Made by a program: the position numbers | Shown here: positions 21,001 through 24,000 of the stretch, one piece after another | Layout of the letters: each line of letters opens with the position of its first letter | Position numbering within the stretch: the first letter of the stretch is position 1 | Source of the DNA: a virus | Taxonomy: Duplodnaviria; Heunggongvirae; Uroviricota; Caudoviricetes | DNA: 26,402 nucleotides | IMG/VR virus record: IMGVR_UViG_2541047828_000003 | Coordinates: 1-26,402 of that record | Strand: one strand, 5' to 3'

Positions 21001-24000
21001 AAGCCGAATGACTCCAGAGATGGAGAGACTGCAAAATGTCGCCTCTGCCCCAGAATTGAACTCACTAAGCATGGATGCCCTGAAGGCTGGATGGTCTCAA
21101 CTTTTCGGCTCTGACGCGTCTCAGGAAAAGATTCTTCAGGGAATGGGGGCGACATTAAGGCAGGATGAGAAGGGGAATACTATCGTTTCTCTTCCATCAG
21201 GTGATTATGCCCTGAACAAGCCGGGTTTATCACCGCAAGACCTGACTTCGTTTCTTGCTAATGCGTTGGCGTTTACACCAGCGGGCAGGGCTGGAACGGT
21301 GCTTGGTGCCATAGGAAAATCAGCAGCTACAGATTTAGCACTACAGGGAGCCACCAGCCTTGCTGGTGGAGAAGATATTGATCCGTTACAAACGGTAATT
21401 TCTGCTGGCATTGGTGGTATTGGTAAGGGGCTGGAAAATACAGCGAGTGCGGTTTCGAGGGCTGTTCGTGGTGATATGTCTCCTGAAGCAAAGGCTGCTG
21501 TCGACTTTGCATCGGAAAGAAATCTGCCGTTAATGACCAGTGACATGCTGAAAGATAAAACCTTTATGCAGAGTCAGGCTCAGACATTAGGCGAAAGAGT
21601 TCCTTTTTTTGGAACCGGTAAGAATCGACTGAATCAACAACAAGCACGAGAAAATTTAGTCAGAACATTTAGCGATGGTCTGGGTAGCATTTCTGATAAA
21701 CAGCTTTATGAATCTGCGACTAAAGGGCAACAAAAATTCATTGAGGCAGCAGGAAAGCGATATAACCGCATAATTGACGCTATGGGGGATACCCCTGTCG
21801 ATCTCTCAAACACGGTAAAAACTATCGACAATCAGATTGCCGTGTTAAGCCGCCCTGGCAAATCTCAGGATAGAGCCGCGGTAAAAGTCTTGCAGCAATT
21901 TAAAGACGATATCACCAGCGGACCAAATGACCTGCGTCTGGCGAGGGAAAACAGAACCGATCTTCGAAAGCGATTTATAGCGTCATCTGACACTGTTGAT
22001 AAAGATACGCTACAGAAAGCCAGCGATATTATCTACAAGGCATATACGGCGGATATGAAAAAAGCCGTAGCCAAAAATCTTGGAGCAGACGAAGCCATTA
22101 ATATGGCAAGGGTTGATCGCTCATGGTCTAAATTCAATGACATGATGGGAAGAACACGCGTTCAAAAGGCAATAGCCAGCGGCAAGTCCACGCCTGAGGA
22201 TGTAACAAAACTCGTTTTTAGCCAAAGCCCATCAGAACGTTCTCAGCTTTACAGGCTTCTGGATGACAATGGTAGGCAAAACGCACGAGCAGCCATAGTT
22301 CAGAATGCTGTAGATAAGGCGACTGATCCGTCTGGAAATATCAGTGTTGAGAAGTTTATTAATGCGTTACACCGGAACAGGAAGCAATCAGCAACTTTCT
22401 TTAAAGGCGTACATGGAAAGGAACTGGACGGCGTTATTAAATACCTCAACGATACAAGACACGCGGCAAAAGCGAACGTTCAAAACTTAAATGGTCAGCA
22501 ACTTTATGGATTATTAGTTGGTGGTGGCATCATAAACGCAGCAGTATTGGCGGGGATGCTAAAAACGGCTGCGTTTGTTGTTCCTGCTGCTGGTGCCGTA
22601 GGCGGAGCAGCGAAGGCATACGAAAGCCCTGTTATACGAAATGCCTTGTTACGTCTGGCAAATACGCCAAAAGGTAGCACAGCATATGACAGAGCGATCA
22701 GTACGGTCACACAATCGCTCACCAGAGTCGCACAGGCATCACAAAAAGAAGCTCAATAACTGGTTAGCCACGGATGGCTAATTTTTGTTCTTTGCTCTCA
22801 TCCACAGGTAAAGAAGGGCAAGAACAAGACAAAAAACAGAGAATAGATAACCTACCTCATATGGTGCGCCAAAAAAATTAGCTATTGATACGGGCAAAAA
22901 AGCTGAAGCGATCAAAATTGAAAGGCAAAAAATAAGCCCAGTAATATAGTTTATTAAATTCTTAAATGAGAAATGTTTTGCTTGATTTACGGTCTTAGCG
23001 AATGATCGCTTAACGACGGATAAAAGCAAATAGATGGCGACAGTTGCTAATGCCCCTTTCCACCAATCTGGATATAGTTTTGCGACAATCAGACCAAGGA
23101 AAACCATGATGACAGCCTGAGCATTCACACCAACCCTCCCTTTAGCGTTGTTTAGAATGGCAATCATCATATATCCAAGACATGGCATTTGGTACATAGC
23201 TTGGGTCGGGATTTCAAATCCGATCCCCGTTGATGGGGCCGTTACAGTACGCGCATATCCGCTTTATGTGAAACAGGAAGATTTTTCTGATATCACTGCC
23301 ACAGCAAAACACCAATTTCGGGACAAGTACGCGCGCGAGGGGTATCAGTTGCAAAAAATTTTGCAACTACGTCCGACCAGTATGCACACGATGGCGGGGG
23401 GATACCATAAAACTGTTCTCTACATGAGACAGAGTGGTGGTGATGTGTTGATTATCGGCGTATATGCGCACAGGACGCGCTATGACGATGTTTTATGCGG
23501 GTACACCAATCCCATGTATCTGGTGTGATAAATCGCGTTACATGACCTCTCATGTTGTGCTGGTGGTTATCACGACGTTCTGAATCTGGCCTTTGCCTGG
23601 TATTTTGCGACAAGTACGCGCGCGTAGCATCGAAATAATCGGATGGCGTATGCTGCTGGTAATATGAAGACCGATAGCATTAACCGTAAGGAGAAAGACT
23701 TCTCGATAACGGCAAGATCGCGGCAAGGGGGCTGAATTGCGAGGCGAGATTAAGCAACTGTCTTGAACGTAAAAATCATGGAGCAACATGATGGTACGAT
23801 TCATTCCATTCTTCGTTCTTTCTGAGCATTGCGTTCAGGCTTAGTCAAAATTAGTGTTGCGAGCGGACCTATTAGTAATTGTTAGTGCGATGCGCCTGTT
23901 ATGGATTGTTATGGTTGTGGCAGGCCTGATTAATATCCAGTATGACCACCAGCTATGAGAGGCCACCTCAGTGGTTCGCAGTTGCAGGTTTGCACTCAGG

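Follow-up and report, generated by a model that had tools for sequence, protein, structure and literature searches.

A four-helix membrane protein in the sieA slot of an Escherichia coli satellite-like island, a candidate superinfection exclusion factor

A small membrane protein gene lies convergent to a gp16-type gene

The window analyzed here is the whole 26,402-nucleotide stretch of IMG/VR virus record IMGVR_UViG_2541047828_000003 (positions 1 to 26,402; Caudoviricetes), which is Escherichia coli chromosome from the thrW / pao-yagU region. On its minus strand lies a gene for a small predicted membrane protein, convergent to a homologue of gene 16 of phage P22 and placed where P22 has sieA. 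The features of this locus are as follows.

22778..23128, minus strand: true coding sequence (CDS) of the 116-residue membrane protein with four predicted transmembrane (TM) segments; GTG start; sequence MNAQAVIMVFLGLIVAKLYPDWWKG...RAKNKN
23129..23197, minus strand: in-frame upstream extension of 23 codons, assigned outside the protein; part of a 5' leader common to unrelated cassettes
23135..23140, minus strand: Shine-Dalgarno sequence GGGAGG, within the conserved junction CTAA(A)GG(G)AGGGTTGGT-GTG that also stands ahead of P22 sieA
22762..22783, no strand assigned: boundary hairpin with core GCCACGGATGGC, conserved, placed between the stop codons of gp16 and the cassette
22784..22793, plus strand: U-rich tract 3' of the hairpin, UUUUUGUUCUUU, antisense of the codons for the C-terminal Lys/Asn residues (KNKN)
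20654..22759, plus strand: P22 gp16-type ejection protein of 701 residues, the convergent neighbor, identified by homology
23129..23738, minus strand: conserved leader of ~610 bp that precedes each of the four cassette types of E. coli islands
~23347-23366, no strand assigned: near-perfect 20-bp palindrome GTTGCAAAATTTTTTGCAAC in the conserved leader

The minus-strand open reading frame (ORF) is open without interruption over 22778..23197, as the first-pass annotation had described, and the protein was then read as 139 residues. The start is better placed at a GTG at 23126-23128, which has the Shine-Dalgarno sequence GGGAGG 6 nt before it. A GTG or ATG stands at the codon equivalent to V24 in every locus compared, preceded by GGAGG at 5-6 nt except in L015, the most divergent family member, which has an ATG start and lacks a clear Shine-Dalgarno sequence. 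Homologues at other loci are 116 residues long, or 109 where a later Met was called. Upstream of the start and its Shine-Dalgarno sequence, the DNA differs from one element type to another, and the first 23-24 "residues" of the extended ORF are common to unrelated proteins of sister islands, with divergence thereafter. Because of the homologue lengths, the conserved start with its Shine-Dalgarno sequence and the upstream codons shared by unrelated cassettes, we assign the CDS to 22778..23128. The comparison indicates that the membrane protein is 116 residues long, and that the 129 residues called by PGAP are over-extended, as are the 139.

The Kyte-Doolittle scan returned four hydrophobic segments, one strongly basic loop, two short aromatic turns and a basic C-terminus, in line with the very hydrophobic helices and basic loops noted earlier. 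Topology prediction, which had been proposed as a check, gave four TM segments with both termini inside the cell (N-in/C-in) and a positive-inside charge distribution. The predicted cytoplasmic basic loop is KRSFAKTVNQAKHFSFK, and the predicted periplasmic turns are YPDWWKG and GAPYEVGY. Two AlphaFold2 models contain four helices each at low confidence (predicted local distance difference test, pLDDT, 57 and 65). The family has the invariant motifs IVAKLYP and YxxGLxF, and all 10 aligned members terminate in ...LYLWxRxKxK; a second Met, 8 codons into the protein, is not conserved. Pairwise comparison of members from E. coli, Edwardsiella and Yersinia gave ratios of nonsynonymous to synonymous substitution rates (dN/dS) of 0.11-0.47, so that the gene is real and under purifying selection.

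The much lower G+C content reported for the gene is correct as a value: it is 37.6-38.1%, against 46.8-51% in neighboring genes and 47.8% across the island, and the 351-nt core falls within the lowest 0.4% of the island's 351-nt windows. As a sign of foreign insertion it is not well supported. The G+C content at third codon positions (GC3) is 0.35 in this gene versus 0.39 in gp16 and gp20, and because GC3 is barely below that of gp16 and gp20, the low G+C derives mostly from the Phe/Ile/Leu/Lys/Asn-rich hydrophobic composition, not from a foreign codon signature.

The gene lies in the slot of sieA

P22 sieA and gene 16 converge across a gap of 22 nt. The gene in the window likewise converges on its gp16-like neighbor, the two stop codons standing 18 nt apart, which bears out the opposite-strand arrangement seen at first. 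The family thus lies where SieA is expected by location, between gene 16 and gene 9 and convergent to gene 16. Both edges of the slot are preserved as well. The ribosome site CTAAGGAGGTTGGT-GTG is conserved across the P22-like contexts compared; the 5' joint AAAACTAAGGAGGTTGGT-GTG is common to P22 sieA, an E. coli P22-like prophage allele and an Edwardsiella island allele, and the joint of the window itself is the variant CTAAAGGGAGGGTTGGT-GTG. At the other edge, the hairpin core GCCAyGGAyGGC was found in 9/9 loci compared, P22 among them. The translation initiation region of sieA and its 3' boundary hairpin are therefore both present at family loci, and the P22 equivalents of the two junctions are at 4315-4336 and 4832-4852 of the P22 locus (L003).

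The cassette stop codon (22778-22780) falls in the right arm of the hairpin. Compensatory changes from G-C to A-U occur in the stem, with both sides altered in 4/7 pairs; the covariation score was matched by 5/500 shuffles and, with nine sequences, gives modest support. On the plus strand the hairpin is followed by the U-rich tract, whereas on the gene's own minus strand it is followed by ACCAGUUAUUGAG, with no U-tract. It seems that the hairpin and U-tract form a terminator-like site for the gp14-gp16 operon on the plus strand only; of the bidirectional terminator proposed earlier, the half serving the membrane gene is not supported.

Across all P22-like contexts the slot junctions are kept, and unrelated coding sequences are swapped precisely from start codon to stop codon. 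In P22-like prophages, as in the E. coli example L006 (5764-7945), four co-directional genes run from the tailspike to gene 16 and encode an S9-family peptidase, a DUF805 protein, a ClpP-like protease and, as the last, the family member.

Sister islands exchange the coding sequence as a cassette

Part of the 22600-23600 stretch is held by 605 of the 5,426 complete E. coli genomes. In sister islands the gp16 3' ends (to window 22777-22779) and the leaders (from 23123-23125) are 97-99% identical, and the differences are confined to window ~22779 to ~23125, where the coding sequences differ. Four cassettes were found between these flanks.

This 116-residue 4-TM gene: 229 of 5,426 complete E. coli genomes
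SieA type-B-like protein, 204 residues: 103 genomes; BLASTP versus P22 SieA 8e-8, RYPGEA motif, phrog_7745 at 4e-4 (L010)
Secreted protein, 122 residues (L011 3222-3590), phrog_2651: 126 genomes
Another 4-TM protein: 87 genomes; only its first ~20 codons in common with this gene

The gene is thus carried by about 4% of complete E. coli genomes, ABU 83972 included. In that strain (L016 13877-16390) the annotation gives a truncated pseudogene for gp16 and an intact membrane gene next to it. One gp16 allele occurs beside unrelated cassettes. Four alternative cassettes between identical flanks amount to replacement between collinear elements, the mark of a moron. The earlier designation of the gene as a moron is upheld on this ground, the swapping of the CDS between near-identical islands; the G+C and terminator arguments first given for it are not supported. 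The start-to-stop exchange between conserved junctions shows, on sequence comparison, how exclusion specificities may get shuffled.

The other 4-TM cassette, as found in E. coli PA45B (L012), was considered as a distant relative at 41% identity and was set aside; its likeness is limited to the first ~20-40 residues and stems from DNA common up to window 23070. The nearest phage gp16 (67% identity) is that of phage N7, whose slot holds a 107-residue single-TM protein (L017 6402-6722). This protein and the 122-residue secreted protein are uncharacterized candidates for envelope-level exclusion.

The ~610-bp leader presumably holds the promoter, and the palindrome GTTGCAAAATTTTTTGCAAC could be an operator. 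The sole, weak sigma-70 candidate in the leader is GTACCA-18-TATGAT (23195..23166). No counterpart of the leader was found in phage genomes, and in Rfam neither the leader nor the slot had a credible match (SprD reached 20 bits versus a gathering score of 100). A 123-residue ORF at 23157-23528 on the plus strand, annotated by PGAP as WP_001444474.1 in some genomes, stands head-to-head with the membrane gene and overlaps the leader. Its C-terminal part looked RelE-like or toxin-like by eye, an assignment that we dropped for lack of Pfam, PHROG or PADLOC support.

Family members examined lie at one kind of locus

A profile search of 1.84 billion representative proteins yielded 7 clusters at 50% identity, and a word-indexed protein search returned close relatives only. 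Where named or examined, the sources are all Enterobacterales. The loci include a Yersinia P22-like prophage, E. coli P22-like prophages, in which the gene lies between gene 16 and the tailspike gene, an Edwardsiella primase island (L005) and two metagenomic contigs. The search for homologues at moron positions of P22-like prophages, suggested beforehand, therefore succeeded: the family sits in the same slot in E. coli and Yersinia prophages.

In every family locus examined (~25 loci), a gp16-type gene is convergent and 17-21 nt away, and in the IMG/VR set gp16 is immediately downstream in 16/16. These 16 loci comprise 7 of island type, 8 of prophage type and 1 (L022) that joins an island-type AlpA leader to prophage tail genes. 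The gp16 partners are all of one type, 62-99% identical to that of the window and ~30% identical to P22 gp16.

Scans of the 139- and 116-residue proteins against Pfam, PHROGs, PADLOC and NCBIfam gave noise only, and a PDB sequence search gave no match. Homology to a housekeeping membrane protein family had been named as part of what would overturn the first interpretation; it was sought in Pfam and NCBIfam, and no curated family matched. Foldseek comparison of the AlphaFold2 models with BFVD and PDB returned no match at E<0.5, and the fold evidence was dropped; the best structural neighbors, nonsignificant at E>0.5, include holins. The gene was not found by tblastn and blastn in 50,697 phage genomes, a family-profile scan of genome contigs confirmed no locus, and a literature search for the protein's accession found no report. 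Taken together, these searches indicate that the 116-residue four-helix protein is a member of an undescribed family.

The surrounding element is a satellite-like island

The element that carries the gene extends for ~17.8 kb from a putative attL to a putative attR (8079-25867; core 14579-22759). Its remaining landmarks are listed below.

8079..8097, no strand assigned: putative attL TCCTATTATCGGCACCATT, adjoining the P4-type integrase gene (8261-9475)
18101..20654, plus strand: gp14 (DUF2824), gp7 and gp20 homologues, identified by homology
25850..25867, no strand assigned: putative attR TCCTATTATCGCACCATT

The sequence of attL, TCCTATTATCGGCACCATT, matches what we take to be the 3' end of thrW. 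The gene order starts with the P4-type integrase and AlpA and continues with an AntA/B antirepressor, the isrK and C4 RNAs, an Icd-like protein, an ash-family protein and a TOPRIM/DUF927 primase; after these stand the gp14, gp7, gp20 and gp16 homologues, the membrane protein, an unannotated stretch of ~1 kb, another AlpA and PerC. The gp14-gp7-gp20-gp16 series is intact and is the full set of P22 internal or ejected proteins. No capsid, portal, tail or tailspike genes appear in the island annotation, and because these are absent we regard the element as a thrW-integrated satellite-like island and not a P22-like prophage. The P22-like prophage context assumed at first does not apply here, where the gene sits on a P4-type integrase/primase island; for the family it is right, as the E. 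coli and Yersinia prophages attest. The capsid-size and regulatory genes of P4-like satellites, sid, delta and psu, are not annotated in the island, where several ORFs lack a Pfam match and no dedicated search for these genes was made. Our literature search for satellites carrying ejection-protein genes found no description.

Window 11933-12160 contains the isrK Hfq-binding RNA (69 bits) next to the C4 antisense RNA (81 bits), upstream of the Icd-like and ash-family genes, in an arrangement that resembles the RNA immunity module of P1/P4 type. Window 1-8000 holds the end of another prophage, in tandem with the island at thrW, with its tail, baseplate and tail-fiber genes, a pinE invertase and inverted tail-fiber-assembly genes, and after these an AraC-family gene and a truncated insertion sequence (IS) integrase. 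In Edwardsiella (L005) and in E. coli PA45B (L012), related islands whose upstream flank was partly seen apparently retain gp20 and gp16 only.

A possible exclusion function at the DNA-ejection step

SieA resides in the inner membrane, with 3-4 TM helices and a conserved C-terminal cytoplasmic motif, FxRYPxEAxxFNK (PMC10883804). Its action is on gp16 and gp20, in their C-terminal regions, where escape mutations map. It is the sole characterized blocker of the P22-type DNA-ejection conduit and recognizes very divergent gp16 and gp20 proteins (PMC10883804). The ejected proteins gp7*, gp20 and gp16 assemble a trans-envelope channel, and P22 growth does not need sieA (bioRxiv 10.64898/2026.09.03.749273). 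The pair that the related islands apparently keep, gp20 and gp16, is the one known to acquire SieA-escape mutations. In the window gp16, the residues aligned with the P22 escape positions G532 and P546 are G614 and K637, in a Gly-rich hydrophobic C-terminal segment, and G532 is kept as G614 at the start of this segment.

We tentatively propose, at a little under even odds, that the membrane gene is an allelic, sequence-unrelated replacement of P22 sieA, encoding an analogous and independently evolved exclusion protein that acts at the same membrane step. The proposal draws on a position exactly equivalent to that of sieA, on the polytopic membrane topology predicted for the protein, on the true SieA that takes its place in sister islands and on the selection that the protein is under. 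That it has an anti-phage function of some kind is somewhat more likely than not. The superinfection exclusion factor suggested by the first-pass annotation remains the best-supported guess, with positional equivalence and predicted topology as its basis, not homology or phenotype: the position in the sieA slot and the SieA homologue as an alternative cassette speak for it, and sequence homology to SieA does not. We infer the membrane localization, the expression in the lysogen, the exclusion activity and its target. The resident element, a thrW-integrated satellite-like island here and P22-like prophages elsewhere, would express the protein, which would reside in the cytoplasmic membrane. On adsorption, a P22-like phage ejects gp7, gp20 and gp16, from which its trans-envelope DNA channel is built, and here the protein may disturb a membrane-proximal step: the way in which the hydrophobic C-terminal part of gp16 inserts or works, along with its junction to gp20; alternatively, access to a host factor such as YajC may be the target. 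The phage DNA would thereby be kept out of the cytoplasm.

Several observations weigh against this proposal. The protein gave E 0.58 against SieA in BLASTP and no match to phrog_7745 at E<=1, where P22 SieA scores 9e-109 and the SieA type-B-like cassette 4e-4; when hhalign compared the family profile with one built from 13 SieA sequences, the probability was 0.3%. With BLASTP, PHROG and profile-profile comparison all negative, we rejected homology to SieA types A-C. None of the 10 family members has the cytoplasmic motif FxRYPxEAxxFNK, whose R147, Y148, P149, A152 and K157 do not vary among the aligned SieA sequences. No match to a family, structure or defense database (Pfam, PHROGs, PADLOC, NCBIfam, PDB, Foldseek) points to a function, and scanning the leader gave no convincing sigma-70 promoter at the threshold used. 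A common slot is no proof of common function; among the occupants of this one are a secreted protein and the 1-TM protein of phage N7. In addition, blocking the entry of P22-like phages is not obviously advantageous to a satellite that needs a P22-like helper.

Other functions were weighed against the same observations. A small RexB-like or holin-like pore, depolarizing the membrane and killing or arresting the infected cell instead of blocking DNA entry, would fit a small protein with four TM helices and a short basic C-terminus; lambda RexB is itself a 4-TM protein of ~144 residues, and holins are among the nonsignificant top structural neighbors. We consider such an abortive-infection effector unlikely, since only the CDS moves between islands and no partner or sensor gene travels along with it. 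RexB, holin and Abi matches are also absent in Pfam, PADLOC and NCBIfam, and the fold matches are all at E>0.5. Nor does the context suggest a holin: the island has no lysis genes, lysis cassette or endolysin neighbor, and the nonconserved second Met leaves no dual-start motif. A different proposal ties the protein to the element's own ejection proteins instead of to incoming phage, as a dedicated accessory or immunity protein of gp16 that shields the producer membrane from newly made gp16 or modulates which conduits open. Such dedication would account for the strict linkage to one gp16 lineage, in which gp16 is adjacent at every locus examined and of a single type, and some islands apparently retain gp20 and gp16 plus the slot only. 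The identical gp16 allele nevertheless occurs with unrelated cassettes, the gene is convergent and has a separate leader, sieA is dispensable for P22 growth (10.64898/2026.09.03.749273), and in ABU 83972 the gene is annotated as intact next to a gp16 pseudogene, all of which make this role improbable.

A lysogenic-conversion protein with no part in defense (a GtrA-like flippase, an envelope-stress or a transport protein), or a neutral hitchhiker of the gp16 module, has very little to recommend it in our estimate. GtrA resembles the protein in size and in its four TM helices, whereas Pfam gave no PF04138 match (E<=1, noise aside), no other Pfam or NCBIfam family matched, and gtrB and gtrC are not neighbors; the dN/dS values and the invariant motifs speak against neutrality, and the slot-mate is SieA. 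A more ambitious extension of the exclusion proposal takes the island as an undescribed phage satellite parasitizing P22-like podophages, in which its own ejection proteins, whether gp14, gp7, gp20 and gp16 or gp20 and gp16 alone, and the interchangeable exclusion cassette form a matched module of entry/exclusion specificity and the 116-residue protein is a new mechanistic class of injection blocker that recognizes the gp16 membrane segment. The ejection proteins of the satellite would let satellite-filled particles enter cells, or would spoil helper particles, and the membrane protein would close that route of entry to P22-like phages in competition with it and to rival satellites. We regard this extension as a long shot.

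If the exclusion proposal is true, the sieA slot would hold a second blocker, much smaller than SieA and unrelated to it, that would be an independent probe of the P22-type ejection-conduit step and would help explain why sieA is present in only a third of P22-like phages. An island with an ejection-protein operon and no capsid or tail genes may also point to a new satellite strategy. The gene itself is a new uncharacterized family in a known kind of locus, and the island context is the more interesting of the two.

Comparison with known systems

The closest known system is SieA (types A, B and C; phrog_7745, PF26849; PMC10883804), which occupies the same slot, convergent to gene 16 and 17-22 nt beyond it. 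The two share the ribosome-binding site and GTG context and the boundary hairpin. SieA is a small polytopic protein of the inner membrane and the family is predicted to be one too, both are carried by P22-like prophages of Enterobacterales, and the family is swapped as a cassette with the SieA type-B-like gene. In contrast, no sequence or profile similarity between them is detectable; the family members have 116 residues versus 164-204 in SieA, lack the soluble middle region and FxRYPxEAxxFNK, and have their own invariant motifs IVAKLYP and YxxGLxF. The family is also found on satellite-like islands.

T4 Imm and HK97 gp15 are small membrane proteins, encoded by phages or morons, that halt DNA transfer across the cytoplasmic membrane. 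They offer a general likeness to the proposed activity, whereas their sequences are unrelated to the family (no Pfam match) and their TM counts and target phage types differ. Lambda RexB and the holins resemble the family in length (~100-150 residues), multipass topology and charged C-terminus; unlike them, the protein described here lacks a RexA-like partner, the context of a lysis cassette, a dual start and any match to their families.

The exchange of cassettes finds its nearest parallel in the defense hotspots of P4-like satellites, where unrelated and probably anti-phage genes are likewise swapped between conserved flanks (PMC13586616, PMC8628076). The island in the window differs from those satellites in having no annotated sid, delta or psu, for which no dedicated search was made. 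Here, moreover, the hotspot is the P22 sieA slot itself, tied to the ejection-protein operon, and the exchange is exact to the start and stop codons.

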